Shown here piece after piece: positions 22 to 49,556 of a stretch of DNA of 64,000 nt. Both the position numbers and the translations under genes were made by a program. The stretch covers positions 18,149 to 82,148 of the IMG/VR virus record IMGVR_UViG_3300037010_001286, one strand, 5' to 3'. Each line of letters opens with the position of its first letter. Position 1 is the stretch's first letter. Under the pieces are notes generated by a model. It saw nothing but the letters and a program-made list of their open reading frames with translations. It made no database searches and was not told where the DNA came from. This DNA comes from a virus.

Positions 22-1338
22 ATGGGAACTTTTAGTTACTATAACCCTAAGACTGAGCAAACTAAGTCTAGTATTAAAGTTACTAAAGGTTCTATTTATG
101 TACCTAGAAATATTAATAAGCTTACTAAGATATTTGGTAATAACTTAGAGATAATTGATAAAACTTTAGTACCCAGTATATCAGCTCCTTTTAGTCTATC
201 TGATACCTTTGATTTAAAACCTGAACAACATGAAGCAATGATAAGTGTTTTGTCTAAATTATTAAAAGGTGATAATTCTGCTGTACTAAAAGCACCCCCT
301 GGGTTTGGTAAATCTTATACATTACCTTACGTTGTAAATTCTTTACAAACAAATACATTGATTATTGTAGATCGAACAAACCTAGCAGAGCAAATGATGA
401 GTGAATTTTCAGCTAATTGTAAAGACCTATCTATTACTGTACTTGGAGGTAAAAATAAAGTACCTACAAGTGTAACTATTGTTACCTTTCAGTTCCTTAT
501 TAGAAATAAGGATTTTATGAAAACTTATAGAGATTTCTTTGGTTTTATTGTAGTAGATGAATGTCACGTTATTGGTAGTGATGTTTTTACTACTGTAGTA
601 GGAAAATTTAATGCTAAATATCGTTTGGGTCTTTCCGCTACACCTACACGTTCAGACTTTATGACAGAACTTCTATTTGATGTAATGGGTACAAGTTTTG
701 TAAGTGGTAAAAGTGCTGATAACTTAAATGTTAATATGGTTATGGTAGATCACCCCGCAAAGTTTGCGTATGTATATGGTAACTATCGAAATGAATATGC
801 TAAGTTTTTAATATACAAAGGAATAGCTTTAGATGTTAAAAGTATCTGTAAAAATTTTAAGACCCTTAATAGATTTGGGTTAATTTATATAACAGAAACT
901 GATGCTCAACTATATTACGCATGGGTATTAAGAAAAGCTGGATTGAGGGTAGGAGTTATTAATAAAGATACCCCCAAAGAAGATAGACTACTATATATCA
1001 AAAAAATGGAAATAGAAGAGCTTGATATAATAATTTCAGGAGCTATTCTACAAAAAGGAATATCTATTAAAAGACTAGACTATATTATAAACCTATCTAA
1101 TTTAACTAAGGAGGCACATGAGCAATTGGTAGGAAGATTGCGTAGACATCATAAAACAAAAAAAGAACCACTATTTCTTGATTTTTTATTTGGAGGTCAT
1201 GCCCTATCTAAATCTTGGGATAGGGAGGAGTTAGCACGTAATCTAAAAAGAGAACATTCTGATAAGTTTACTAAGATAACAATTCAAAAACTTTTAATAG
1301 AAATTAAGAAACAATCTGATAAAGTAAAAAAAACATAA
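22..1338 (+). CDS. Superfamily 2 DEAD/DEAH-box helicase (T5 D10-like)
   Basis: Walker A APPGFGKS, DECH box, LSATP motif III, QLVGRLRR motif VI. Confidence 0.9.
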   Translation: MGTFSYYNPKTEQTKSSIKVTKGSIYVPRNINKLTKIFGNNLEIIDKTLVPSISAPFSLSDTFDLKPEQHEAMISVLSKLLKGDNSAVLKAPPGFGKSYTLPYVVNSLQTNTLIIVDRTNLAEQMMSEFSANCKDLSITVLGGKNKVPTSVTIVTFQFLIRNKDFMKTYRDFFGFIVVDECHVIGSDVFTTVVGKFNAKYRLGLSATPTRSDFMTELLFDVMGTSFVSGKSADNLNVNMVMVDHPAKFAYVYGNYRNEYAKFLIYKGIALDVKSICKNFKTLNRFGLIYITETDAQLYYAWVLRKAGLRVGVINKDTPKEDRLLYIKKMEIEELDIIISGAILQKGISIKRLDYIINLSNLTKEAHEQLVGRLRRHHKTKKEPLFLDFLFGGHALSKSWDREELARNLKREHSDKFTKITIQKLLIEIKKQSDKVKKT

Positions 1339-1348
1339 AAGGATACGC

Positions 1349-1903
1349 ATGGAACTTGAAATATCTAGCAATAGTAAACCACCTAAAACTGTGTACTATG
1401 ATGAGAAAAATAAGACTTATAGTATTTATATCTTTGATGATATTGGATACCCGTTTCAGTATATTAAAGTATTACAAGCATTAGACAAAGCATCAGCTGA
1501 TAGCACAATTAAAATCTTTATTGGCTCTAACGGAGGTCTATTAGATACTACAATTGCTTTAGTAGAACATATAAAAAATTGTAAAGGTACTACAATTGCA
1601 TACGTAAGTTTTGCAGCCAGTGCTGCTACTATATTAGCTCTTGCTTGTGATAAAGTTTATCTATATCAGAACTCATACTTTATGTGTCATAACTTCTCAA
1701 CAAGAGGTTCAGGAAAAGGCGCAGAATTAAAGGCTAGAGCTGCCTTTGATGATGCGTGGTCTAAGCTTGTCTTTGCTAGTTTGTACAAAGGATTTATGAC
1801 TGAAGCTGAGATTGATGAAATGCGTAATGATAAAGACTTTTGGATGCTTCAACCTGAAGTGGAAAATAGACTTCGAGCAATTGATAAACTTTTAGAACAA
1901 TGA
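1349..1903 (+). CDS. ClpP-like serine protease
   Basis: IGSNGG, AASAA (catalytic Ser), FMCH (catalytic His), DFWM near the C-terminus. Confidence 0.85.
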   Translation: MELEISSNSKPPKTVYYDEKNKTYSIYIFDDIGYPFQYIKVLQALDKASADSTIKIFIGSNGGLLDTTIALVEHIKNCKGTTIAYVSFAASAATILALACDKVYLYQNSYFMCHNFSTRGSGKGAELKARAAFDDAWSKLVFASLYKGFMTEAEIDEMRNDKDFWMLQPEVENRLRAIDKLLEQ

Positions 1904-2634
1904 ATGTAGCTTTAAAGTTCCTTGAATATTTAAATTCAAGGAGTCCTGAAGCTCCTAGCAAAAGTGTTGAAGAACTCTACAACTTATATAAATATTCTTC
2001 TGTGTTTATTCCCCCTAGTAGTATTACTGTAACCGAGGATACTGTAACCCCTGTTTATCGTTTTAAGGTAGATAAGTTTATAGATCTTGTAAAATATTTA
2101 GATACTATTACCATTCAACAGGAAGATATTGATAGAGTAAATGAGTTTCTTAAATCATGTTCTAAACTAGAAGTCAGGGCTTTTACAAAGATATTGACAA
2201 CACCTAAAAAGATATTTACTCGTTTCTTGCCACTACCTGAGGTTGACCCAGGGCAATGTGTTATTCAAGTAGTACCAAAAAATACTACTCGGTTAATTAT
2301 AAAAGTGTATAAAGGTGATATTAAAGTTTTAAAAGGTAATCCTAGTAAAGAACAACTACTATCCTTGCAAACTAACTTTATACATTATACTGGTATTTTA
2401 TACTTTTTTATTGACGAAGAGTTAATATATTGGTATGATTTTAAGAGTAACTTGCTTACAACAAAGAGAATGTTATATCTAAGTTCTCAAAGAGAGTCCA
2501 AGATTTTAAAAATCTTAACCCCTTATTTCTTTAATAGCTTTGTAGAGGCTTTGAGGTATTATTATACTTCTGAAATAATATTAAAGCCTCTTAAAGGTAC
2601 TTTTAAAGACATCTATATTTTTAAAGGAATGTAA
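1900..2634 (+). CDS. Hypothetical protein; probable degenerate ATP-dependent DNA ligase paralog
   Basis: KFIDLVKYLDTITIQQEDIDRVNEFL aligns by eye with ligase KFMDIAKFLSENSINAEHLRNTINFL; no KxDG motif. Confidence 0.55.
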   Translation: MNVALKFLEYLNSRSPEAPSKSVEELYNLYKYSSVFIPPSSITVTEDTVTPVYRFKVDKFIDLVKYLDTITIQQEDIDRVNEFLKSCSKLEVRAFTKILTTPKKIFTRFLPLPEVDPGQCVIQVVPKNTTRLIIKVYKGDIKVLKGNPSKEQLLSLQTNFIHYTGILYFFIDEELIYWYDFKSNLLTTKRMLYLSSQRESKILKILTPYFFNSFVEALRYYYTSEIILKPLKGTFKDIYIFKGM

Positions 2635-2828
2635 TGAAAGTTTTAATAGAAAATATCTCTATAATGGGATTGAGACTTACTCATTTTGCCCAACTTATGC
2701 AATACTTAGAGGATAGAGATAGAGAGGGCTGGTACTATGGTAATAGAAAACAGTTTGAAAAAAGACATGAAGAACTACGTCAATGGCTTACTAATACTAT
2801 TGTTTTATTAGGTAATAACAATGGATAA
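2634..2828 (+). CDS. Small hypothetical phage protein
   Basis: TAATG overlap with the upstream gene, AAGGA RBS. Confidence 0.7.
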   Translation: MKVLIENISIMGLRLTHFAQLMQYLEDRDREGWYYGNRKQFEKRHEELRQWLTNTIVLLGNNNG

Positions 2829-2997
2829 GTTAGAATATCAAAGGTTAGTTAAAGAAGTTCCACTGTCCAAAACTTGTTTGGATGTTGTAGTCATCCAGGA
2901 TAGATATATAAAACATCTTGAGGCTGTTAATGAAAATTATAGTAATACAATAATAAAATTACGTACTCAAGTTAAAAAACTAAAGGAAAACAAATGA
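2821..2997 (+). CDS. Small hypothetical protein (58 aa, not in ORF track)
   Basis: ATG 2821 to TGA 2997 fills the gap; ATGA overlap with the polymerase start. Confidence 0.6.
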   Translation: MDKLEYQRLVKEVPLSKTCLDVVVIQDRYIKHLEAVNENYSNTIIKLRTQVKKLKENK

Positions 2998-5567
2998 CAA
3001 TATTTACACTTACACCAAAAGCTGAACCAAAAGCTCTAATTATTCTTCCTGAGAAAGTTTGTAATATGGGAGCAGCTAATTTCCTCCTTACTAAACTTAT
3101 TCAACCTTTAGGACTTAGTGTCAATGACTTTGCATTTGCTGGTGCATATGTTCCTGAAAAAGGTAGATTAAAGAAAGATGACTTTATTTCAGAGTTCAAT
3201 GAAATTTTAAGTTACTGTGAGGTTCATAATATCAAAGTACTTGGTTGTGGTAACTCGGGTTATTATGAGTGGCTTACCGGAGATAAAAAGTTCCAATTAA
3301 ACATTGGTAGAATTGTTAAAGGTATTAACATTGCAGAAGATTTTTCAGTAGCACCTATATTAAATCCAGTTATCCTTAATATGTTTCCTGACCGTGCAAA
3401 AGAATTACATAGAGGAATATCAGCTATCAAAAATTTACTTAGTGGTACTTATACTGACCCAGTTGAAACTCTCGACTTAACCTTAAATGCTATATTAAAA
3501 GACCCTCAAGATATTTACATTCATCTTAAAGCGTGGATTGATGCCCCTGAATTATTTGTGGATATTGAGACAACTGGTCTCGCTTGGTATAATGATAAAA
3601 TATTGACTATAAGCTTTGGGTTAAATGAAAAAGAGGCATTTTGTGTAGCTGTACATGAAAAGTATCATGACACTGAAACTTATATGAAAATAGTCAAGAC
3701 CCTTAAAGCTTTCTTTACACAGTATAAAGGTAAACTTATTGGTCATAACTGGATAGGGTTTGACCAAGCGTTCATTGTACATGAAATTATGAGAGGTTTT
3801 GACTTTTCAATTGACCACGCCCCTATTATCAATATGTTTAATTTAGAGGACTCTATGCTACTCGCTTACGTTGAATATAATTCAACAGAAAGACCTTCTT
3901 TAGGTCTAAAAGAACTAGCATTTTCCTTTATGGGTGAATATGACGCTGATATAGATCAAAAGAACCTATATAATGCTGACCTATATAAGGTAGCAACTTA
4001 TAATAACTATGATGTTATTGCAACGTGTCGTATATGGAAACAATTAAAAGCAGAAGTAGCTGCTGAGAGTTTACCTCTTTATGATGTATATCAAGAGATA
4101 CGTGATATTGCTCATACACTTCTTAAAGTCAAGATGAATGGATTACGTGTTAACAAAGAGGGTGTTAAAGCAGCCATTGCTGAATTAGATGAAATGATTG
4201 TAGATAGTACCCTTAAGTTCCGAGACCATCCAGTTGTTCGTACGGCTGAAGAACTTCTTAATAAAGCAGCTTTTAAAAAGCATAATAGTACTTTGAAAAA
4301 TAAAAAGACTTGGGCAGATTATAAAGCAAATTATTATGAGCCTTTTAATCCTAGTTCCCCAAAGCAAAAGCAATTCCTGTTTTTTGAGGTATTAAATTTG
4401 CCTATTGTTAAAGTAAGTAAAACTTCTAAGCTCCCTAGTACAGATGCAGAGTCTTTTGAAGAATGGATGACTATGGATTTGCCAAAAGATACTCGTGAGG
4501 TATTAGAACTTATACAAGATATTCAAACTGCTGAGAAAGTAAATAACACCTACCTTCGTGCATTTTATGAGAGTAGTGTAGAAGTAAAACCTGGACACTG
4601 GAAAGTATTTACTAACTTTAATAGTACAGGAACAATTAGTGGTCGTTTAAGTAGTTCAGGGGGACTAAACTTCCAAAACTTACCTTCTAATAGTAAATAT
4701 GGTAAACTGATTAAAAAGCTTTTAATTTCAGATGATGGGTATATTATTCTTGCTTCAGACTTTGCTGCTCTTGAAGATAGGTTAATAGCTATTGAGGCTA
4801 ACGATAAAAATAAGCTACGTGTATTTACTGACGGGATTGACGGTCATAGCCTTAATGCCTACGCTTACTTTAAAGATAAGCTTGAAGAGAGAGGAATTAT
4901 TATTGATATTGATAGTGCAAAATCTATTAATAGAATTAAAACTGAAGCTCCTGATTTAAGACAATTGGGTAAATCAGTAACATTTGGTCTAAACTATGGA
5001 AGTAGTCCAAAGAAAATTGCTTCACAGTTAGGTGTTAGTATCCAAGAGGCTGAGAAAATTTATCAAGGATATTGGGAGTTATATGCCCCTACTAAAGCTT
5101 ATAATGACTTAGCTATTGAAGAGGCTAGAACAACAGGAGCAGTGGTATCTACATTTTCAGGGCTACGTGTTAAAATGGCTAGTATTAATGCTAGAGATGA
5201 GTACCTCAGAAGTAAAGAAGAAAGACGTGCAGCTAATTTTAAAATACAGTCGGGTAACTTTCTAACCCTTCGAGCATTGCACGGGTTTCAGAAGGCCATT
5301 GAAGATGCTGATATGTTGGGTAAAGTGTTTGTAACAAATACTGTACATGATAGTCTATATTTGCAATCTAAGGCGGATGAGGAGACTATTAAGTGGGTTA
5401 ATGATACTCTTATAGGTTTGATGTGTAGAGATTATAAAGAAAATCAAGCTATTAAGTTAGAGGCAGAACTTGATTTAGGTTTCTCTCAGAAAGATATGAT
5501 AACTATTAAAAATAACTGCCCTATTAAAGAAATTTCTATAGTTTTAGAAGAACTTCAAGGTCACTAA
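2994..5567 (+). CDS. polA: Family A DNA polymerase with 3'-5' exonuclease and an extra N-terminal domain
   Basis: Exo I DIETTG, TGTISGRLSS, motif A DFAALEDR, motif B RQLGKSVTFGLNYG (Phe at the 762-equivalent), motif C TVHDS. Confidence 0.95.
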   Translation: MTIFTLTPKAEPKALIILPEKVCNMGAANFLLTKLIQPLGLSVNDFAFAGAYVPEKGRLKKDDFISEFNEILSYCEVHNIKVLGCGNSGYYEWLTGDKKFQLNIGRIVKGINIAEDFSVAPILNPVILNMFPDRAKELHRGISAIKNLLSGTYTDPVETLDLTLNAILKDPQDIYIHLKAWIDAPELFVDIETTGLAWYNDKILTISFGLNEKEAFCVAVHEKYHDTETYMKIVKTLKAFFTQYKGKLIGHNWIGFDQAFIVHEIMRGFDFSIDHAPIINMFNLEDSMLLAYVEYNSTERPSLGLKELAFSFMGEYDADIDQKNLYNADLYKVATYNNYDVIATCRIWKQLKAEVAAESLPLYDVYQEIRDIAHTLLKVKMNGLRVNKEGVKAAIAELDEMIVDSTLKFRDHPVVRTAEELLNKAAFKKHNSTLKNKKTWADYKANYYEPFNPSSPKQKQFLFFEVLNLPIVKVSKTSKLPSTDAESFEEWMTMDLPKDTREVLELIQDIQTAEKVNNTYLRAFYESSVEVKPGHWKVFTNFNSTGTISGRLSSSGGLNFQNLPSNSKYGKLIKKLLISDDGYIILASDFAALEDRLIAIEANDKNKLRVFTDGIDGHSLNAYAYFKDKLEERGIIIDIDSAKSINRIKTEAPDLRQLGKSVTFGLNYGSSPKKIASQLGVSIQEAEKIYQGYWELYAPTKAYNDLAIEEARTTGAVVSTFSGLRVKMASINARDEYLRSKEERRAANFKIQSGNFLTLRALHGFQKAIEDADMLGKVFVTNTVHDSLYLQSKADEETIKWVNDTLIGLMCRDYKENQAIKLEAELDLGFSQKDMITIKNNCPIKEISIVLEELQGH

Positions 5568-5583
5568 AAATAAAGGAAAATAA

Positions 5584-5883
5584 ATGAACGCAGTCTTAGA
5601 AGATTTATTAAATAATGGATGTGAGTTAATAGTAACTAAGAGTAATGAGGGACAACATGCCTATATATTCAAAGGGTTTTATAAGTATGGAGAAGTTCAA
5701 CTAACCCCTATTTTAGAGGGAAAATACGAGGGTAAATTATTATGCACCACTAGATATGGTATTACAAAACATATAAGTTCTTTTGAGGAATTTAAGGAAT
5801 GGAACATACAAGTATGGGAAATTTATAAAGACAGCTTTAAAGGTTGGTCTGCAATTGAGTACCCATTTAATATAGGGGCTTGA
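5584..5883 (+). CDS. Hypothetical phage protein
   Basis: AAGGA RBS, operon packing. Confidence 0.7.
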   Translation: MNAVLEDLLNNGCELIVTKSNEGQHAYIFKGFYKYGEVQLTPILEGKYEGKLLCTTRYGITKHISSFEEFKEWNIQVWEIYKDSFKGWSAIEYPFNIGA

Positions 5884-5884
5884 G

Positions 5885-6247
5885 ATGAAAGTAGCAGAAT
5901 GGAAAGCCAAACGAGCAGTATCTAATACAGTAAGTACAGAGTCTTTGAAGGAAGTTATTAATGATTATGAAAATAAACTCTGTACAATGCACTCACAAAT
6001 TCTTGTTCTTAACAGTGATAAAGAGAGATTAAAAGAGGAGATTAACAATCTTAAAAGTGAGATAAATCGTATTCAGGACACTGCTGATAAATATAGTAGG
6101 TGGTGGACTCAAGAACAAAATAAGGTTCGTAATGAAGTTAAAAGAACCGAAAAGTACAAAAGGTATTCTAAAAGAATAATTGAACTTATTAGAGCTAAGT
6201 GGTGGGTTCGTGGAAGGATGCTTAAATTTCTTTTGAAAGAATTTTAA
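5885..6247 (+). CDS. Hypothetical coiled-coil protein
   Basis: Heptad-rich sequence, operon packing. Confidence 0.65.
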   Translation: MKVAEWKAKRAVSNTVSTESLKEVINDYENKLCTMHSQILVLNSDKERLKEEINNLKSEINRIQDTADKYSRWWTQEQNKVRNEVKRTEKYKRYSKRIIELIRAKWWVRGRMLKFLLKEF

Positions 6248-6274
6248 CTAATCAATAAGTTTTATTTTTATCCT

Positions 6275-6341
6275 ATAACTACTCATATATGAGTAATTAA
6301 TCTATAAAAAACCGATTAATCATTCATATATGAGTAGTTAT
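6275..6341. repeat. 28-bp inverted repeat whose arms are themselves palindromic
   Basis: ataactactcatatatgagtaattaatc (6275-6302) versus gattaatcattcatatatgagtagttat (6314-6341), 26/28 complementary. Confidence 0.9.
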
Positions 6342-6422
6342 TAATAAACATACAATAGTATTGATTAAGCTTCGTTTTAGGACTTAAAACATATCATTCT
6401 ATATATTATCACAGGAGCCTCC

Positions 6423-7646
6423 ATGAACTTTGAAAAGTTATCACTAATAACTATATTACAACGAAAAGACCCTACACTACTCCAAACATTAAGTGTACAC
6501 CACTTTAAAAAACCTGCTCATAAAACGCTTTTTAAAGCACTCATAAGCTATAACAAACAATTTAGTAAAATCCCTACTGTTGATATATTATCATCTGCCA
6601 TACAGACTCAAATGGACGCTGATAAAGCATCTATATACGTTTCTATGCTAGAGTCGTTCAAAGAATATGATGGAGAACTTCCATCCTCTGAAGAAATTAT
6701 AAAGAACCTTGATGATGCTTATCTTATTGCTAATGTGGATGCTCATATTGAGCAATTAGTTGAAGCCGCTAAATCAAAAGATATTGAAACAGTAAAAAGT
6801 TTACTCAGTAAATTGGACAATTCCGTATCAACTAGTTCCAAAAAGCCTGAAAATATCCTTGATGTAACTTATGAACCCTCTAAAATTCGTACAATAGACT
6901 CTTGTATGGAGTCTATGAGAGCGAATAATCTTAAAATGGGAGGATTAGTACTAATTGGAGGTACTTCGGGAGGCGGAAAAAGTATTTATACCTTGAAACA
7001 ATTAATGTACTCCTTCTCAGTTGATAGAGTTCCTACTTGTTTATTAAATATGGAATTAGGACTTGATGAAACTATTGCACGAATGTATTCCCAGGCAACA
7101 GGAAAAGATTTTTCTGAGGTATATGGAAATACAAATCCATCAGTTGTAGCTAGTGTAAACTCTTGGAAACAAAAATACTTCTCAGGTGATATTGAGTTTA
7201 GAATTAAATCTATCAGATATTCTATTAGTGAAATTGAACATACTATTAGAACTCAAGCAGCTCAAGGCATAGTGCTATTTGGTATTGATTATCTACAAAT
7301 TGCAGATTTAGATGTATCTACTGAAGAGTGGAAACAATTATCTAAGTTAGTAAGACTCCTACACCAACTTACTCAAGAATTACAGATAGTAATTATAAGT
7401 CCTGTTCAAATTAACTTCAGTGACACAAAAATAAAAGATAATGAGCTTCAAGTAACTATCCGAGGCTCAAGAGAGTTAGAATTTAGCTCATCCGTTTTCT
7501 TATTTATTTATCAAACCCAAGAAGAATATAAAGAGAATGTTTGTAGAATTTTTACTGTTAAGGCACGTAATGCTAAGAAACAAATTTATCTAACTCAGAC
7601 CCTTTTCTCACAGATGAATTTTATTGATACAGGGGTAGTATTATAA
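6423..7646 (+). CDS. DnaB-like replicative helicase
   Basis: Walker A GTSGGGKS, LNMEL, IDYLQ, SPVQ, RGSRELE, VKARN. Confidence 0.9.
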   Translation: MNFEKLSLITILQRKDPTLLQTLSVHHFKKPAHKTLFKALISYNKQFSKIPTVDILSSAIQTQMDADKASIYVSMLESFKEYDGELPSSEEIIKNLDDAYLIANVDAHIEQLVEAAKSKDIETVKSLLSKLDNSVSTSSKKPENILDVTYEPSKIRTIDSCMESMRANNLKMGGLVLIGGTSGGGKSIYTLKQLMYSFSVDRVPTCLLNMELGLDETIARMYSQATGKDFSEVYGNTNPSVVASVNSWKQKYFSGDIEFRIKSIRYSISEIEHTIRTQAAQGIVLFGIDYLQIADLDVSTEEWKQLSKLVRLLHQLTQELQIVIISPVQINFSDTKIKDNELQVTIRGSRELEFSSSVFLFIYQTQEEYKENVCRIFTVKARNAKKQIYLTQTLFSQMNFIDTGVVL

Positions 7647-10422: not shown

Positions 10423-10978
10423 CTTCGACCTCAAAATAATCTTTCATGTGGAGTAGGCAGGTAGTTATAATACGTTTAACTTTAGCACGACTAAAACCAA
10501 CTAACTCACTGATTTTAACTACACTATCCTGTAATATAAAATAATCGTACAGGATACGATGTTCTAATGGCGTTAAGCTTTCTAAATATGTAGAAAACTC
10601 TTCAGCACACTGTAAACGTACTATTTCATCATCTATATCACTTAAACTATGATCTACAAACTCTTCTTCTAAGAGACCAGCAGAAGTAAATGAATGCATC
10701 TCTCTATTAGATTGAACTGACCCAGGACGCACAGTAGAGCTTCCTTTAGGACTATTTCTACCAATATAATCTAAAATAGCACCGGAAACACGTCTATAAG
10801 CATACCCCATATAAAAATTATTCTTACTTTCCTCATATTTTTCTCGTGCTTTAACGTAGGCCAGTAAACCCTCTTGAACTAAATCATCTAGCTCTACATA
10901 GTAGTTAGAACGAAGAAAATACTTATAAGCAATCTTCTCTACAAATTCATAGTCTTTCTTTGGAATTTCTTCTATCAC
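10415..10978 (-). CDS. RNA polymerase sigma-70 family factor, FliA/sigma28-like
   Basis: Region 2 DDLVQEGLLAYVKAREKYE...YAYRRVSGAILDY; region 4 HTH ISELVGFSRAKVKRI. Confidence 0.88.
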   Translation of the reverse strand: MIEEIPKKDYEFVEKIAYKYFLRSNYYVELDDLVQEGLLAYVKAREKYEESKNNFYMGYAYRRVSGAILDYIGRNSPKGSSTVRPGSVQSNREMHSFTSAGLLEEEFVDHSLSDIDDEIVRLQCAEEFSTYLESLTPLEHRILYDYFILQDSVVKISELVGFSRAKVKRIITTCLLHMKDYFEVEDG

Positions 10979-12660
10979 TTTAGACCCCTTTGAGAGTTAA
11001 TTGAAGTTAAGCTAGTAACCCCTTTATCTTTTGTAAAAGTAATAACTGTATCAAACATATTTATAGGCAGTTCTTCATGGTGTGTTATTACATATACAGC
11101 CTTATTCTCACGTATAATCTCTAAGAACTTAGTAACCATACTAATACCCTCATCATCTAATACTCCAAACAGCTCGTCAATTACTAAGTAATTAGTAGAA
11201 ATACCTGTTACTTGCTCTAAAGTAAACAAGGTTGTAATTAGAAGAACTAGAGAAACTCTAGTACGCTCTCCCGCAGATAAATCATTAAATCCTTTTAAGA
11301 TACCTCTATCATAAAATTCATATTCTAACTTACCATTTTTAACAGATACTTTAATGTCGATTGTAAAATCAGTTTTATCTATTAGGTCTTTAAGCACAGT
11401 AACGAATACTTTTCTAAATTTATTAAGATACTCATTAGTAAGTGTTCCATTTTTTATAAAAAGTAAACACTCCTCAACTAATGCAAGTTTCTTATCTAAA
11501 GCATCCATGTCTGAAACAATATCACTTAATTCTTTTTCAATTTCATCCCGTTGTTTAACAATCTTGTCATATGCAGAGTTCTGCTCTGCAACTACCAGTA
11601 ATTTTGATTTTAAAATGTTAATTTTTCCTAAAATAGCAGCCTCATCATCAGCCAAACTTTGTTTTACTCTAGTACACTCATCGTCTAAGGTAGATATAGT
11701 AGAGGTAAGATTACTAATGAAATTTTCTTTTGTACTTTTTTCCTCTATTAATTTGGATAAATCAAGATTTAAAGTATCTTTATCAAGAGTCCCAACTGCC
11801 CCACAAGTAGGACAAATATTAGAAGAATTAATTAGCCTCTCTAACTCAACTATCTTATAGTTTATAAGAGATAACTCAGTATTTAAAGCACTACGCTCCT
11901 CTTTGAGTCCTACTATTTTAAGTCTCGTAGCCTCTACTCCAGCATGTTTAGGGCTACGAGTGACTGCTAAAAGAGACTTAGTTAGAGTATTAATATTTTC
12001 TTCTATTACTGTAACATTTACTTTCTGAAATGAACTAAGTAAGGAGATATTTTTCTCACAATTTCTCATCTTAGTTATTAGAATAACTCTAAGATTTTTA
12101 AGTTCTTTTCGCTCCTCTTTTAATATAGCCTCAGATTGCTGAATAGAGGCTATATTAAAAAATTGAAAAAGTATATTATCCTTATTTGTAGTATCCAAAA
12201 TTGCTTGGAGGGTACTTTGACTAATATAAGTCAAAGCAGAAAATGTATCAAAGTCTAACCCAAGTATATCTTTAATTTGTTTAAGTTGATTTGGAATACC
12301 TTTTACTGAAATATCTACTCCATTTTTAAGTACGGTAATTTTATTAGTATTTCTGTCATTTGTAACTGTATAGTTATCTTTTTCATTGAGAGTAAAATCT
12401 AAGCTAATACTATATGGTTTTCCAGTAATAGAATTATTTACACTCTCAATAGTACCTTTAGGGTTTTTAATATTCTTGTTAAATAGCCCTTGGTAAATAC
12501 TAGAAAAGGTAGCAGTCTTTCCTGAGCCATTAGAACTCTTAAAAGAACTTTCAATATCATTATTGATACCTATAATATAATGAAGCCCCTTCTCTACAGG
12601 TAAAGTAATACTACCAACTGAGAAGAAATTATTTACACTTATCTTTTTAATCTCTAACAT
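10975..12660 (-). CDS. SbcC/Rad50-like recombination ATPase (T5 D13 / T4 gp46-like)
   Basis: NGSGKT, coiled coil with CPTCG zinc hook, LSAGE signature, LVIDE, ITHH. Confidence 0.92.
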   Translation of the reverse strand: MLEIKKISVNNFFSVGSITLPVEKGLHYIIGINNDIESSFKSSNGSGKTATFSSIYQGLFNKNIKNPKGTIESVNNSITGKPYSISLDFTLNEKDNYTVTNDRNTNKITVLKNGVDISVKGIPNQLKQIKDILGLDFDTFSALTYISQSTLQAILDTTNKDNILFQFFNIASIQQSEAILKEERKELKNLRVILITKMRNCEKNISLLSSFQKVNVTVIEENINTLTKSLLAVTRSPKHAGVEATRLKIVGLKEERSALNTELSLINYKIVELERLINSSNICPTCGAVGTLDKDTLNLDLSKLIEEKSTKENFISNLTSTISTLDDECTRVKQSLADDEAAILGKINILKSKLLVVAEQNSAYDKIVKQRDEIEKELSDIVSDMDALDKKLALVEECLLFIKNGTLTNEYLNKFRKVFVTVLKDLIDKTDFTIDIKVSVKNGKLEYEFYDRGILKGFNDLSAGERTRVSLVLLITTLFTLEQVTGISTNYLVIDELFGVLDDEGISMVTKFLEIIRENKAVYVITHHEELPINMFDTVITFTKDKGVTSLTSINSQRGLK

Positions 12661-13636
12661 CTTTTAAAACTCCTCTCAAATAATCTTCTAAATCTTGTGA
12701 TATTGGGTAATTGTTTGTTTTAAGTAGAAGGAGTAAAGTATCTATAACCTCAGTTTTTTTATGATTATACAAATCTAGTACTAAATCTTCAAATTCCTCA
12801 GTATTAGCAATCTCTAGAGGCTTAAACTCAAAATTATCTACTAAAGGGTTCTTCATTAACTTTGAAGCTACTTCAGTACTAGGACTACTCTGAACAATAA
12901 CTTTATAAATATGTCTTGAGTCTAAAGATAACCCAGTAAGAACTTCCTCAGCAGTAGTTGTATGTAATATTTTACAAGGTAAATCTAATCTCTCCCAAGT
13001 ATATGAAAGCTCTTTATCCAAGTTAATTAAGAAATATCCACAGTCTCTAGGTAAATCAAAATGTATACTATATGGACTGGATGGGTATGTTACATTTGGA
13101 AATGGAGCATAAGAGTGGTGTATATCCCCTACAAAGCAGTGGTTAAATATCTTAGAAACTTCACCAACATCAATTTCTCCCTTAATAAAAGTACCAAAAT
13201 TAGCTCTAAAATGAGAGAATAATATACTTTGTCTTTGTGAGCTAATATCTTTCTTTTTACTAGCAATAGTTTTACATTTTAAATGTGATACAAAGTATAA
13301 ATCATAATTAGGAATTTTTAATACAACATCCTCCAAGTATGTAAAGCCAACTGCTGGGATAAAATCAAATACTGTCTTATGGTCTGATAAATTTTCGTGG
13401 TTACCTGAAATTACCCATACAATTTTTTCAGCATCTCTTAGAATTTGTATGCCCTCATAAAATACTTTTAATTCCTCTAAGGATACCTTAGCAGTATCAA
13501 AAGTATCTCCACCTAAAATAATGTGAGATGCTGGACATTCTGATAGTAAAGTAAAAAGTTGAAGAAAGCGATTAGAAGCCCAGGTAGGGCTATGACGTAA
13601 GCTTAGGTGAATGTCACTAACAAAAGCCACCTGCAT
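12647..13636 (-). CDS. SbcD/Mre11-like metallophosphoesterase nuclease
   Basis: SDIH, GGDTFD, SGNHE, GDIH motifs. Confidence 0.92.
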   Translation of the reverse strand: MQVAFVSDIHLSLRHSPTWASNRFLQLFTLLSECPASHIILGGDTFDTAKVSLEELKVFYEGIQILRDAEKIVWVISGNHENLSDHKTVFDFIPAVGFTYLEDVVLKIPNYDLYFVSHLKCKTIASKKKDISSQRQSILFSHFRANFGTFIKGEIDVGEVSKIFNHCFVGDIHHSYAPFPNVTYPSSPYSIHFDLPRDCGYFLINLDKELSYTWERLDLPCKILHTTTAEEVLTGLSLDSRHIYKVIVQSSPSTEVASKLMKNPLVDNFEFKPLEIANTEEFEDLVLDLYNHKKTEVIDTLLLLLKTNNYPISQDLEDYLRGVLKDVRD

Positions 13637-15588: not shown

Positions 15589-16500
15589 TTAATCCTTCAT
15601 TTTAAAAAATAATTTATCTACGGGAGATAAAGGACAAACCTTACTATACTCCTGTAAGAGTGTCATAGAAAACTCATCATAAGAGTTGCCTAAAGGTCTA
15701 GTAGAGAACTTTACCAAGAACTCTTTCTGTTCTTCTTCAGATAGATCAGCTAAGGTTACAGGCTTAAATAGCTTGTAGTTTAGCTCTATCATATCATCAT
15801 AACTAACAGACTCATCAGGAAGGCATATACCATTAGAGTTAGAGTCAAGAAGTCCTCTAATCTTAAATTTAAGGGTATTAAAGTCAGAATACTTAGGGTA
15901 AAGTCTAATAAAACTCTTAACCCCAAACTTGTGAAGTCCTTTTACATTTTCTTTAGCAGACCCTGCAAATACCTGTAGATAAAATACCCCTAAAGGGTCT
16001 ACCTCATATTCCTCTACACAATTTTTAGAAGTAATAAAACGATTACGTTTTACATTTAGCATTCTAATATTATCAGCAAATAGAAAACTAGCCCAGTCTT
16101 TATCTGAACTCAATAGAGTTACTGTGGTATCAGTATTAGCAAATCTACTAGCAATTATTGAGCCAACGTCATCTGCCTCAATACCACTAATATCAATAAC
16201 ATTACCAAAATAAGAAAGCCAAGGTATAGAATTTCGATATTCTTGTTCAAATATACGCTTTCTTTCTTGCTCTTGGGGAGTAGCTTTCTTATCATTCTCT
16301 TTTCTATGAGATTTATATGCTGGATATATTAGGGAGCGTTTTGTTTTACCTATATCAACTGCAAATACAATTTTAGAGGGTTTTACATTATTACTTCTAC
16401 ATATTCGGGAAATCTCAGAAAAAACACCTAGTAGTGGTCTATGATTGTGGTGTTGATTAAAACACATCAATTTATAGTCTATAACTAAAATTTCAGCCAC
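15589..16500 (-). CDS. 5'-3' exonuclease / flap endonuclease (T5 D15-like)
   Basis: YPAYKSHR, GIEADD, SSDKD, ENVKG; GGAGG RBS. Confidence 0.9.
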   Translation of the reverse strand: MAEILVIDYKLMCFNQHHNHRPLLGVFSEISRICRSNNVKPSKIVFAVDIGKTKRSLIYPAYKSHRKENDKKATPQEQERKRIFEQEYRNSIPWLSYFGNVIDISGIEADDVGSIIASRFANTDTTVTLLSSDKDWASFLFADNIRMLNVKRNRFITSKNCVEEYEVDPLGVFYLQVFAGSAKENVKGLHKFGVKSFIRLYPKYSDFNTLKFKIRGLLDSNSNGICLPDESVSYDDMIELNYKLFKPVTLADLSEEEQKEFLVKFSTRPLGNSYDEFSMTLLQEYSKVCPLSPVDKLFFKMKD

Positions 16501-16542
16501 TGTGTCCTCCTTAAAGTTGAAAAAGCATTATATAACCTATAA

Positions 16543-16610
16543 TCTTAAAGAAAACTGAAAGCCTATTTTACGAGGTTTCTTAGAGGTGTCCCAAGACCTA
16601 TTATTGTATT
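16543..16610. repeat. 68-bp direct repeat, copy 1 (copy 2 at 49489-49556)
   Basis: 65/68 identical to 49489-49556. Confidence 0.95.
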
Positions 16611-16692
16611 ACCCTCTAAGAACTTTAGAGAAATTTTCCTATAACTTTAAGGTTACTTTTAAGAAACTTTTTGTACAATATTACTTCTAAAT

Positions 16693-16700
16693 ACGATTAT
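16693..16700 (+). promoter_or_regulatory. Putative phage-sigma promoter -10 (ACGATTAT)
   Basis: Recurrent intergenic motif. Confidence 0.5.
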
Positions 16701-16710
16701 ATATATGAAG

Positions 16711-16804
16711 ATATTGTAGTGCCGTCCCAGGTACTTGTTAAACAATAGAGCCTTCTTTTGAAGGCACTACAATATGTTTATCTAGGATTGATAAGTACCT
16801 GGGA
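16711..16804 (+). ncRNA. Candidate pseudoknotted 5' leader of rep
   Basis: Interleaved stems 16711-16723/16763-16775 (13 bp) and 16725-16741/16788-16804 (17 bp, 2 G-U pairs). Confidence 0.55.
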
Positions 16805-16853
16805 AGCCTTGTTAATCTTCTTATAATCATAATTAAATCTGAATGGATTAACT

Positions 16854-17936
16854 ATGAATGAGAGTAAATTTCTTCTTACTTACTTAGATAAGTATCATAA
16901 AATTCAATGTTCAAATATAAAAACAGATAAATATACCTTTAAAAAAGCAGAAGAGGCACTTGAATTTAACTTTATTAGATTTGGTAACTCTTATTTTATT
17001 CCAGCTATTTCAATTGATATTGATTTTAAATCTGATATTTACCGAATAATTTATGACAATAACCTACCTGAACCTACTTTCGTAGTTCATACAGACCGTG
17101 GAACTCATATTCACTGGTTTTTAGAAGTTCCTATTAGTACAGCTAATAAATTCCAGTTAAATTATCTTAATAATCTTATTAATTATCTTCAAGGTCTATT
17201 TGGTGGTGATAAATATGCAACTACTAGAAGTGCTGGGCGTATTTGGAGAAATCCTATTAAGTTCCCTCATATTTTTTCAGGAAATCTTGTATCTTTTTCT
17301 GAATTTACCCTCCCAAAAAAAGAAAAAGTCCAACAAATTGACACTCAATATACTAGCAGAAATAAGTATAAAAAAATTTTAAATATAGATTTTACTAGTG
17401 TTATAGAGGGAACTCGTCACCATACTCTTTTTGAGTATGGACGTGCCTATGCTTATACTACTGGTATAACTAACCCACATGCAGAGATTGAAGCTAAAAA
17501 TGCTTTAATGCCAAATCCATTATCAACTATAGAGGTTAAATCAATAGGTAACTCTATAGATAAATTTATGACTACAAAATATAAAAAGAGTACATACAAT
17601 AGCTCTCAAAAAACAGTAGAATTTAATAGAAAGATAGCTAAAGTACAATCTGATAAGAAACTTACTGAGATAGTTAATAAAATACTTATAAGTATTTCTC
17701 CTATAACTTTAGCAAAAAACCTAACAGCTCGTAAAGCTGCTAAGGTACTTAATATAAGTAAAAATACTTGGACAAAATATGCAAAAGTATTGATTAGTTC
17801 TATTAAAGAGTCCTTACTAACTATAAAAGCTCCATTAAGATACTTACCAATTTCTACTAATTTATACGTAGAAAGAAGTATACCTATGTATAATACTATA
17901 TATTCTAGCAGTATAGTACTAAATAATTCAACATAA
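16854..17936 (+). CDS. Plasmid-type replication initiator (ColE2/pAL5000-like Replicase primase domain + PriCT-1 + HTH)
   Basis: SIDID, LPEPTFVV, RGTHIHWFL, RNP, GTRHHTLFEY, NPLSTIEVKSIGNSI. Confidence 0.8.
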   Translation: MNESKFLLTYLDKYHKIQCSNIKTDKYTFKKAEEALEFNFIRFGNSYFIPAISIDIDFKSDIYRIIYDNNLPEPTFVVHTDRGTHIHWFLEVPISTANKFQLNYLNNLINYLQGLFGGDKYATTRSAGRIWRNPIKFPHIFSGNLVSFSEFTLPKKEKVQQIDTQYTSRNKYKKILNIDFTSVIEGTRHHTLFEYGRAYAYTTGITNPHAEIEAKNALMPNPLSTIEVKSIGNSIDKFMTTKYKKSTYNSSQKTVEFNRKIAKVQSDKKLTEIVNKILISISPITLAKNLTARKAAKVLNISKNTWTKYAKVLISSIKESLLTIKAPLRYLPISTNLYVERSIPMYNTIYSSSIVLNNST

Positions 17937-33765: not shown

Positions 33766-35268
33766 TTATAATTCTAGTGCATAATAATGATTACCAATAG
33801 GTACATCGGCATCAGGTAATACTATATAATCTTTAGAGTTAATTGTTATAATACTTTCCGGAGTTGCTTGAGAACTAGATATAGCATAAACTCCATCTAC
33901 TATACCTAAATAAGAAGTTCCATACCAAACACTTATAGCAGTCATAAATACAGAGTTAGAAATAGATAAGAAAGAACTAATATCCCCCGTAATATGTCCA
34001 ACGGATGCACTAATATAACCATTATATCCTAATCTATAACTATTATTAGTACTATATAATATACCACTTCTAAAATCGGTGTTATCTACCATAGTCCATA
34101 ATCTATCAGCAGTAGTAGTAGTACCAGCAGTAAACACATTATTACCATCAGAACCTAGTGTTTTAATTTTACCAACATACCCAATTTGATACAATGGAGT
34201 ACTTCTAGTTGCAGTTATGTCTAATAGCTTATATGCAATAATAACTCTATCAGTTGTTACAGATAACCAATATTTTACTATTTCTGTTGAAAAAGGAGGT
34301 ACACTACATAGGTATTTAGTTACAGCCTCTGTCCCTACCTGGATAGTATCTGCAGGAGAGTGTCCTGATACATTTACATCAGCGGTAAATAGACTAGTCT
34401 TTAAATAAATATTATTACTACTATTTACCCCAATAACAACCTCTATATCATGTCCGTTAGAGCAAGTATTCCTATAAGTCCCTCCCTCTAATACTCCAAC
34501 ACCATTAGTTATTAAATCAGTAACATAAGCATCAGTACTAAGTACTGGAGTAGTTTTATTAACTAATGCTAATATATCAGCAGCTGTTAGTACTTTTGAC
34601 CAAGTTACTAATTGGTCAAAAGTAAACAAAGTATAAGTTCCACCTATAGAATAAAGAATAGGATAGTATAGATTTGTATTTGCTATAGAGTCTATGACTA
34701 TTTGCTGTACCAAAGTAGAATTTACATATAATGTTAATGTTCTTGTAGTAGTTGAGAAAGTAAATGTAAGTAATTCCCAGCTTTTGCCTGTATAATCACT
34801 AAAGTAGTTTTCCATTAAGTATAATAACGGAGGAAAACCTTTATATATACATGCATCTTTATCAAAGTCTAAATCTATTCCATATCTATTAGTACTAGAA
34901 TTATAACATCCACGTAAAAATGCAGTACTAATCTGTGAATCTGCCCTTAATACTGAGTTTGCCATATTTACCCAAACAGTAATAGAAAACTCTGTAGGGT
35001 AATTAGAAAATACAGTAGCATCTAAATTAGTTTGGACATATGGACCAGTAAGCGTTGCTCCAGGATACATCATAATCCCTGTAGTTGTTGAATATCTACC
35101 AGGAGCAGCTAAAATAGTTCCTGAAGGAGTATATTTTAAAGATTTAGAAGAGGTTACAGTTGAAATAGTGCTATAATCAAGCCTCTTCCATCCTGCATCA
35201 CTCATTAGTTGTTTTAAATCAGTAAATAAACTATTCATATTCTTATTAATACCTATTTTAGATGCCAT
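33766..35268 (-). CDS. Virion protein with LamG/concanavalin A-like domain
   Basis: FSITVWV, WELLTFTF...LYVN, WSKVLTAADI. Confidence 0.7.
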   Translation of the reverse strand: MASKIGINKNMNSLFTDLKQLMSDAGWKRLDYSTISTVTSSKSLKYTPSGTILAAPGRYSTTTGIMMYPGATLTGPYVQTNLDATVFSNYPTEFSITVWVNMANSVLRADSQISTAFLRGCYNSSTNRYGIDLDFDKDACIYKGFPPLLYLMENYFSDYTGKSWELLTFTFSTTTRTLTLYVNSTLVQQIVIDSIANTNLYYPILYSIGGTYTLFTFDQLVTWSKVLTAADILALVNKTTPVLSTDAYVTDLITNGVGVLEGGTYRNTCSNGHDIEVVIGVNSSNNIYLKTSLFTADVNVSGHSPADTIQVGTEAVTKYLCSVPPFSTEIVKYWLSVTTDRVIIAYKLLDITATRSTPLYQIGYVGKIKTLGSDGNNVFTAGTTTTADRLWTMVDNTDFRSGILYSTNNSYRLGYNGYISASVGHITGDISSFLSISNSVFMTAISVWYGTSYLGIVDGVYAISSSQATPESIITINSKDYIVLPDADVPIGNHYYALEL

Positions 35269-49488: not shown

Positions 49489-49556
49489 TCTTAAAGAAAA
49501 CTGAAAGCCTATTTTACGAGGTTTCATAAGGGTGTCCCAAGACCTATTATTGTATT
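49489..49556. repeat. 68-bp direct repeat, copy 2
   Basis: 65/68 identical to 16543-16610. Confidence 0.95.

Follow-up and report, generated by a model that had tools for sequence, protein, structure and literature searches.

Two mutually exclusive folds upstream of a phage rep gene and a possible bistable leader

Here, we analyze an element of interleaved inverted repeats upstream of rep, the gene of a putative replication initiator in an uncultured phage, and provide evidence that this element has two alternative folds, each of which is stable beyond chance and both of which are kept in a diverged strain with a bias towards the plus strand. The analyzed stretch of DNA, hereafter the window, comprises 64,000 nucleotides (nt) and corresponds to bases 18149-82148 of the 82,148-base-pair (bp) virus record IMGVR_UViG_3300037010_001286, a record with terminal repeats (116 bp are common to its two ends); positions are those of the window unless the genome is named. 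The phage has a G+C content of 32% and encodes a family A DNA polymerase, a DnaB-like helicase, a ribonucleotide reductase, a portal protein, a tape-measure protein and a sigma-70-family factor. The element (16707-16820) sits in a 353-bp intergenic gap (16501-16853) between two divergent genes, i.e., a 5'-3' exonuclease gene on the minus strand (15589-16500; PF02739, expect value (E) 6e-16) and rep on the plus strand (16854-17936, with its ATG at 16854), whose product of 360 amino acids (aa) appears to be a primase-initiator of the Replicase/PriCT-1 type.

Labelling rep as a primase-type initiator is reasonable, because Pfam matches extend across the family and motifs are common to its members. 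The Rep of the window itself matches PF03090 with an E of 0.0083 and 16.7 bits, below the cut-off of 26, and within the family nine of 12 members match PF03090 (at E up to 0.01) and nine of 12 match PF08708 (PriCT-1). The 11 database relatives of Rep are 32-79% identical to it over the alignment, or 34-79% by the best BLASTP local alignment; the most similar one (79%) may come from the diverged strain described below. DxD, HxH and GRxxRNP motifs are conserved in the alignment of Rep with these relatives. Annotated phages contained no related DNA by blastn or tblastn, and Rep as a single query found no relative among viral contigs. A search with the Rep alignment recovered five viral and six metagenome loci (among which L003 equals L007 and L006 equals L010), and the nine related loci encode Rep homologues at 36-51% identity in the best tblastn segment. 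It had been noted that rep has no strong Shine-Dalgarno (SD) sequence, and indeed the only candidate is GGA (16845-16847); the rep genes of the relatives, unlike that of the window, have strong, unpaired ribosome sites of the AAGGAG or GGGAG type.

Two exclusive folds in one sequence

The original prediction described two interleaved long stems, a small hairpin and a possible closing helix upstream of rep. These stems exist as described and go far beyond chance. Arms A (16711-16723) and A' (16763-16775) pair perfectly over 13 bp, all Watson-Crick, as can be read directly from the plus strand. Arms B (16725-16741) and B' (16788-16804) form 17 of 17 pairs, two of which (16737-16792 and 16739-16790) are G-U pairs on the plus strand and A-C mismatches on the minus strand. 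The small hairpin, here called H (gccttc-tttt-gaaggc, 16750-16765), has all six pairs around a tttt loop, overlaps A' by 3 nt and is terminator-like when read on the minus strand. The closure helix between gaagat (16707-16712) and atcttc (16815-16820) is complementary at six of six positions in the window. The RNA fold of 16700-16860 has a z-score of -5.98 on the plus and -9.20 on the minus strand, values that none of 200 shuffles matched on either strand. A/A' is one of only four perfect inverted repeats in the whole 82,148-bp genome that reach 13 bp or more and whose loop does not exceed 60 nt; five dinucleotide shuffles of the genome yielded 0, 0, 0, 1 and 0. The other three lie at 6275-6341 (18 bp, 31-nt loop, a palindrome before the helicase gene), 12118-12160 (15 bp, 13-nt loop) and 34591-34624 (13 bp, 8-nt loop). 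The element is present in a single copy in the genome, and a mobile or repeated element was rejected on this ground.

The stems do not belong to a single structure. Fold I combines the closure helix, B/B' and H and is the minimum-free-energy (MFE) fold of 16707-16820 at -43.8 kcal/mol. When A/A' is forced, the segment 16784-16795, which includes the 5' half of B', pairs with C' (16808-16819) as a further hairpin, C, with 12 of 12 pairs, three of them G-U in the window. Hairpin C escaped the original prediction, as did an exact direct repeat: the 3' half of B, CTTGTTAA (16734-16741), recurs at 16808-16815 within C'. The 5' arm of C has, by its overlap with B', two alternative partners, the 3' half of B' (16796-16804) forms the loop of C in fold II, and C' overlaps the 3' arm of the closure helix. 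Fold II, consisting of A/A' and C, reaches -35.5 kcal/mol and is the best fold of 16707-16820 that contains no pair of fold I. The two folds have no pair in common and every helix of one clashes with a helix of the other, i.e., the closure with A and C, B/B' with C, and H with A', while topology prevents A and B from coexisting. When the sequence was shuffled 300 times with all fold I pairs preserved, the best non-overlapping fold averaged -20.8 kcal/mol (standard deviation 3.4) and none reached -35.5 kcal/mol. Fold II is thus not a side effect of fold I.

The order A-B-A'-B' is that of a pseudoknot, as had been noted, and the stems A/A' and B/B' share no nucleotide. Both points would be in line with a true H-type pseudoknot, in which the two full stems form at once, or with a small self-cleaving ribozyme, which the original prediction had also considered. 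However, nucleotide 16724 alone would have to bridge the 17-bp helix, and the two stems, 13 and 17 bp long, would each have to be wound through the other by more than one turn. A full pseudoknot would also give no role to the conserved helix C or to the repeat of the 3' half of B. Moreover, the best hits of the element in Rfam 15 were at chance level up to an E of 10 (RNA-OUT with 21.2 bits versus a gathering score of 41), so that no ribozyme family was matched, and the whole window gave zero matches at gathering score. We regard a full pseudoknot or a ribozyme as extremely improbable.

Judging from the predicted loops, the only plausible pseudoknot is a partial one within fold II, a kissing-loop contact of 9 bp. 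Hairpin A exposes a loop (ucccaggua, 16725-16733) that is complementary over 9 nt to the loop of hairpin C (uaccuggga, 16796-16804), and the duplex between these loops is worth -14.9 kcal/mol. As an estimate that includes no proper pseudoknot penalty, hairpins A and C together with the kiss would amount to about -27 plus -15 kcal/mol, which is of the same order as fold I.

Compensatory changes in a diverged strain

A variant of the element was rebuilt from metagenome contigs of four sequencing runs placed at 80% likeness, all four of which gave contigs. Figures for runs X3 and X4 are identical throughout, and these two are probably one data set. Over 16585-16860, the contigs X3 record 10 and X4 record 18 each have 22 differing letters and five gap letters; X5 record 27 has 15 and four over 16691-16860, and X2 record 4 has 23 and four over 16708-16947. 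A one-base deletion was placed at 16785 in the two plus-strand contigs and at 16792 in the two minus-strand contigs; because the totals are equal, we read these placements as two alignments of one sequence, in which case three substitutions of X3 and X5 at 16790-16792 belong to 85 rows that stand outside those listed. The edits were applied to the window by a script. Within 16707-16820 the resulting variant is about 87% identical to the window, with 12 substitutions and three indel events, and it is unchanged over 16701-16737. Run X5 also contains a second variant (depth 4.2, two contigs) in which a base is missing at 16728 and AC is inserted after 16758, and which may carry a bulge in B.

Pairing is kept almost throughout the diverged sequence. 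Stem A retains 13 of 13 pairs, with its 5' arm identical and with 16765 C>T turning one G-C into a plus-strand G-U pair. Stem B has 18 of 19 pairs, all Watson-Crick: both G-U pairs of the window have become Watson-Crick, two pairs are gained and the outermost one is lost. In H all six pairs are kept; 16750 G>A and 16765 C>T have together replaced the closing G-C by A-U, and the loop is 2 nt longer. Hairpin C keeps 12 of 12 pairs with a single G-U, all three G-U pairs of the window having turned into Watson-Crick pairs, and the closure helix loses one of its six. Changes are found in loops and in the unpaired linkers (16749 and 16781-16787): substitutions without a pairing partner fall in the linkers (16749, 16783), the indels (+2, +1 and -1) fall in a loop and a linker, and their net sum of +2 means that no reading frame is kept on either strand; a 30-aa minus-strand frame at 16738-16830 is broken by it and ruled out as coding.

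There are four double compensatory changes, one in H (G-C to A-U), one in B (U-A to C-G) and two in C (A-U to G-C and A-U to U-A), so that covariation, proposed earlier as a check on the stems, is seen in one diverged relative. A three-way covariation is also present: 16738 T>C in B and 16812 T>C in C' are both matched by a change to G in their common partner in B'. In C, 16816 T>A is compensated by 16787 A>T and yet breaks a closure pair of fold I. Both folds of the variant are more stable than those of the window, at -47.9 kcal/mol for fold I and -39.6 kcal/mol for fold II. In 500 random mutants carrying the same number and kind of substitutions (12, with four transitions and eight transversions) and the same indels, the means were -29.4 and -22.2 kcal/mol, and none of the 500 reached the energy of the natural variant for either fold. 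A third partner for B' (16820-16828) was rejected by eye against the rebuilt variant.

The imperfect pairs indicate which strand carries the structure. Helices A, B, C and H contain seven non-Watson-Crick pairs, of which the window contributes five and the variant two; all are G-U on the plus strand and none is A-C. They involve five independent nucleotides, and five of five would arise by chance about once in 32 cases if transitions hit either strand alike. As the same wobbles would be A-C on the minus strand, the conserved structure is that of the plus strand. At the level of structure and conservation, the reading of the element as a switch is therefore supported. This is also what stood of the interpretation offered by the original prediction, since two exclusive folds kept by compensatory changes fit a switch.

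A candidate promoter and a possible bistable leader

As had been pointed out, the element begins about 7 nt after ACGATTAT (16693-16700, plus strand), a promoter-like box that is unchanged in the variant. The motif ACGAT[AT]AT occurs 15 times in the genome. Eight occurrences fall in the 10% that is intergenic, and all eight point at a gene start 13-153 nt away; the genes concerned include those for tail, tape-measure, capsid and terminase proteins. Of the nine related loci, eight have a similar box before rep, the exception being L006. Given these box statistics and the phage's own sigma factor, ACGATTAT is likely the -10 element of a late-type promoter read by the phage sigma, with a predicted transcript start at about 16705-16709, i.e., at the foot of the closure helix. 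An 8-bp hairpin (ATCCTGTA...TACAGGAT) carries another ACGATTAT box in its loop, at window position 10541 (genome 28689, minus strand); this site falls within the sigma gene region, and the next minus-strand start follows after 106 nt.

The same motif statistics bear on the hypothesis that the element is the target of a ColE2-style antisense RNA, with the other strand as its gene and the hairpin loops as recognition loops. A passage in PMC5304414 states that in ColE2 replicons the 5' untranslated region of the rep messenger RNA (mRNA) has a complement in a small antisense RNA, which these replicons encode. A single terminator-like site was seen in 16300-17100, formed on the minus strand of our element by H and the following TCTATTGTTT; this strand folds well (z -9.2), and ATGATTATAAGAAGAT at 16830-16815 mirrors the plus-strand box. 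The mirrored box, however, has a T in place of the C that is invariant in the class, and [AT]TGAT[AT]AT shows no intergenic enrichment (6 of 56 versus a background of 10%). An antisense promoter of the phage's own class was rejected on these motif statistics, and no other minus-strand promoter stands out to the right of the element. Together with the strand bias of the wobble pairs, which places the conserved structure on the plus strand, this makes antisense control by the opposite strand quite unlikely.

An element that works as DNA, be it a hairpin-type single-strand initiation site or origin for Rep, a set of operator sites for a protein, or the promoter region of the exonuclease operon, would suit the position in a divergent intergenic gap and the nature of Rep, whose class of Replicase/PriCT-1 primase-initiators acts at specific DNA sites. 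CTTGYTAA occurs three times, twice in direct and once in inverted orientation, and its copies vary in concert, as iterons would; moreover, G-T pairs are tolerated in DNA hairpins. The inverted copy in the window, though, differs at two of eight positions, which only wobble pairing would excuse, and the spacing of the arms shifts by 2 bp in the variant, so that helical phasing is lost. Spacers of 39 and 46 nt are poor substrates for cruciform extrusion. The cumulative GC skew takes no turn at the element, with its maximum at genome position 27181, and an origin at this site was rejected for want of an inflection.

A promoter within the element was also considered. On the minus strand, arms B and A contain a sigma-70-like match (TTAACA, 17 nt, TACAAT; 10 of 12 positions, 16713-16741) directed toward the exonuclease operon. 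Such matches are not more frequent in the region than expected by chance (five found, 4.7 expected), and the -35 hexamer is poorer in the variant owing to 16738 T>C. The terminator-like H with TCTATTGTTT lies just upstream of this match; if real, the two would start the exonuclease-sigma operon and end antisense transcripts. Among the relatives, L002 (Rep 51% identical) has perfect palindrome arms of 26 bp with a 16-nt spacer at 2860-2935, upstream of rep. These arms lie between a repeated box and a ACGATAAT box, hence upstream of the presumed rep promoter and on the other side of the box than in the window. The palindrome of L002 would favor a DNA-level role; most relatives with the same Rep, on the other hand, lack the element. 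Overall, we consider a DNA-level function unlikely; a single-stranded DNA hairpin used by the primase is the conceivable form, as the arguments from spacers, phasing and skew concern duplex DNA.

We instead propose, with about even confidence, that the element forms most of a bistable 5' leader of about 150 nt in a rep mRNA transcribed from the ACGATTAT promoter, and that this leader controls the level or timing of Rep. Where transcription starts, in which order the folds form, whether the loops kiss and what follows for Rep are what we infer here. Briefly, hairpin A/A' would form first on the growing chain and hold B in its loop. B' would then find a nearby partner in C', the repeat downstream of it, which completes hairpin C and thereby fold II, and the complementary loops of A and C may kiss, yielding a pseudoknotted intermediate. 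Finally, B would displace C' from B' by strand exchange, which it could do because the sequence of C' equals the 3' half of B, and the long hairpin of fold I would result. We favor this kinetic model since the predicted MFE fold of a growing chain includes A/A' from 16776 to 16800 and B/B' from 16805 onward. Such a leader would serve to control how much Rep is made from late transcripts, or when. The two folds may give the mRNA different fates, as the long 5'-terminal duplex could protect the message or be cut by a double-strand-specific ribonuclease; alternatively, the time before refolding may be the relevant window.

The weak SD sequence GGA and the AUG (16854-16856) are predicted to pair within a small plus-strand hairpin of their own (16827-16857), which was absent from the original prediction and forms with both folds and in both strains; the variant substitution 16838 T>C preserves the pairing to its GG. 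The switch is less likely to act by masking the ribosome site directly. An anti-SD pairing of 16811-16818 with 16845-16852, with eight of eight positions in the window, was rejected because the variant has only five of eight. On the plus strand, no terminator-like site, i.e., a hairpin followed by a T-run, was found in 16300-17100. A link between the element and Rep expression is nevertheless plausible as a model.

Several points weigh against the proposed leader. Of the five sequencing runs that contain the stretch or part of it, none is on record as RNA. The hexamer TATAAT (16822-16827, plus strand, unchanged in the variant), which is missing from the promoter scan because no recognisable -35 element fits it, could be a proximal host-type promoter, and the mRNA would then lack the element. 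Fold I is the MFE fold in both strains and about 8-10 kcal/mol more stable than fold II, so that fold II would be rare at equilibrium unless the kissing contact, which is only estimated, adds to it. The ribosome site is equally exposed in both folds, with predicted unpaired probabilities in fold I versus fold II of 0.33 versus 0.33 for the SD sequence and 0.01 versus 0.00 for the AUG, and the same equality holds in the variant; consequently, no output of the switch is visible. The main weakness lies in the variant itself, which was rebuilt from the listed edits, with one more substitution in 16691-16860 that is unlisted. Template switching in quasi-palindromes can change both arms together without selection on an RNA, and the tolerance of G-T pairs extends to hairpins of single-stranded DNA.

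The related loci speak against a general role as well. None of the loci with a Rep homologue contains the element, since only chance matches of 11 nt were seen there, and a scan of viral contigs for the exact pattern of the B arm returned nothing. The closest Rep relatives (50-53% identity) have other leaders or none, and in seven of the nine related loci the rep leader is short or unstructured (z -0.84 to +1.52, or too short to fold). The only other relative with a long leader, L003, has at 2455-2525 a single 18-bp hairpin that starts 5-6 nt after ACGATTAT (z -4.33) and is accompanied by a strong SD sequence; it has no second fold (z -0.30). With most relatives lacking it, the element is not a general feature of related rep genes. 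As far as the sequences tell, the bistable element is specific to the lineage of the window and is carried by two sequences only, and the theme that it has in common with relatives is limited to a long hairpin at the predicted 5' end.

Three of these observations, namely the greater stability of fold I, the single long hairpin after the same box in L003 and the equal exposure of the ribosome site, would equally follow if only the long hairpin of fold I mattered, as a 5'-terminal stabiliser or a site for a double-strand-specific ribonuclease, and if fold II were a by-product of the arm repeats. However, A/A' (13/13) and C (12/12) are kept in both strains, although neither is of use for fold I, and two of the double compensatory changes lie in C, one of which (16787/16816) had no fold I pair to gain. 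The change at 16816 in the variant perfects C at the cost of a closure pair of fold I, and a second fold of this stability appeared in none of the 300 shuffles that preserve fold I. We thus hold it doubtful, indeed quite improbable, that fold I acts alone, and retain the bistable leader as our working proposal.

Other repeated sequences accompany the gap and the early region of the genome. A repeat of about 75 nt with the core GGTGTCCCAAGACCTATTATTGTATTACCC lies at 16543-16622, between the exonuclease gene and the element, and has a 10-bp stem (16577-16586/16613-16622) around a conserved 26-nt loop. It has four copies in the genome, the others being at genome positions 6697-6760 (plus strand), 11040-11130 (minus strand) and 67630-67710 (plus strand; window 49489-49556), and one copy lies antisense between two plus-strand genes; with this number of copies, a simple bracketing of one module does not describe the repeat. 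Four related phage records have two to five copies each, always with one just upstream of rep. This repeat could be a site for a protein or polymerase, or a small RNA. Before the window, in the early plus-strand block at genome positions 819-6810, a short palindrome, AAAGTTAGAT-n-ATCTAAC, occurs in at least six intergenic gaps just before genes and is a candidate early promoter or operator. It resembles the hairpin promoters read by virion RNA polymerases; no virion RNA polymerase was found in the phage, its protein of 2078 aa being the tape measure. Finally, an intergenic gap at genome positions 13358-13470, also before the window, holds three tandem copies of a 33-bp unit (AGAATACAAAATAAAATTGATTATGTTAAGTAA).

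Comparison with known leaders and significance

The leader of the MS2 maturation gene is a kinetically controlled metastable fold. Together with the leaders of hok (plasmid R1) and aapA3 (Helicobacter pylori), it belongs to what appears to be the closest functional class for our element, that of metastable or bistable mRNA leaders, which is not a homologous family. A passage in PMC6733600, which cites work on hok, describes successive metastable hairpins that are replaced by a stable long-distance interaction and are supported by covariation. As in hok, aapA3 and MS2, the helices upstream of rep are mutually exclusive, both are kept by compensatory changes and one segment covaries with two partners; in hok-type mRNAs, alternative pairings have been established from three-way covariation of this type. 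The proposed order of events, in which less stable local hairpins would form first and a stable long-range fold afterwards, is likewise that of these leaders. Unlike in hok, aapA3 and MS2, where the folds differ in masking of the SD sequence, exposure is equal in our case and the ribosome site has a hairpin of its own. There is also no sequence similarity to these systems, no Rfam match, no toxin gene and no demonstrated antisense partner. To our knowledge, complementary loops combined with a duplicated invading segment have not been described for hok, aapA3 or MS2.

The parallels with plasmid replicons, which the original prediction had invoked, remain analogies. Like ColE2 and ColE3, the phage has a gene for a primase-initiator, here a putative member of the Replicase family, behind a 5' leader that is predicted to be structured. 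According to a passage in PMC5304414 (citing Yasueda et al. 1994), control of ColE2 Rep is post-transcriptional and proceeds via an antisense RNA on the rep leader. Unlike its counterpart in ColE2, the Rep of the window is a distant family member (E 0.0083), no antisense promoter is supported and the structure is biased to the sense strand. ColE2 is also a small plasmid, whereas the phage measures 82 kb and encodes a polymerase, a helicase and a sigma factor of its own.

In IncI-alpha, IncB and IncL/M plasmids, a pseudoknot activates translation of repZ or repA, is coupled to a leader peptide and is blocked by an antisense RNA. The phage leader resembles these systems in that an upstream hairpin has a loop whose complement lies in a distal segment of the leader, ahead of a rep gene whose ribosome site is poorly exposed. 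It differs in that the partner of this loop is itself the loop of a hairpin, at a distance of about 70 nt and with about 50 nt left to the AUG, rather than a segment beside the ribosome site, and the only complementarity to the SD region is lost in the variant (five of eight). A conserved frame for a leader peptide was not found either: the window has only frames of three to four codons, and the indels of the variant are +2, +1 and -1.

The element also has something of trp-type attenuators with their alternative pairings 1:2, 2:3 and 3:4. Segment B' has two partners of identical sequence, B and C', and because these compete for it, B/B' and C exclude each other. Unlike in trp-type attenuators, however, no plus-strand terminator-like hairpin with a T-run is present in 16300-17100 and there is no leader peptide, and A and B exclude each other by topology and not by common bases.

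It is intriguing to go one step further and to suggest, as a tentative idea with a small but real chance of being right, that the leader works as a molecular timer complete in itself, whose design would be new and in which the interplay of antisense RNA and target known from plasmid copy control takes place within one molecule. Hairpins made in order would kiss, and the duplicated segment of 8-10 nt would resolve the complex into one long duplex, so that each late transcript would give a short or delayed window for synthesis of the primase-initiator. Alternatively, a factor acting in trans, such as Rep or another phage RNA, may bind one of the loops and hold the switch.

Initiator proteins are usually needed in small and well-timed amounts, and plasmids use antisense RNAs, pseudoknots and iterons to this end. 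We know of no work on how plasmid-type primase-initiators are regulated in large phages. The value of the present leader is limited for now, as only two strains of the uncultured phage, which comes from a mat or vent, are known to carry it. As a compact natural example it has both states of a putative switch visible in its sequence, together with three-way covariation, and it has a built-in path between these states in the form of complementary loops and a duplicated invading segment. If this path proves true, the rep leader would be a good model for programmed RNA refolding in the control of a phage initiator and may offer a usable design for synthetic timers.

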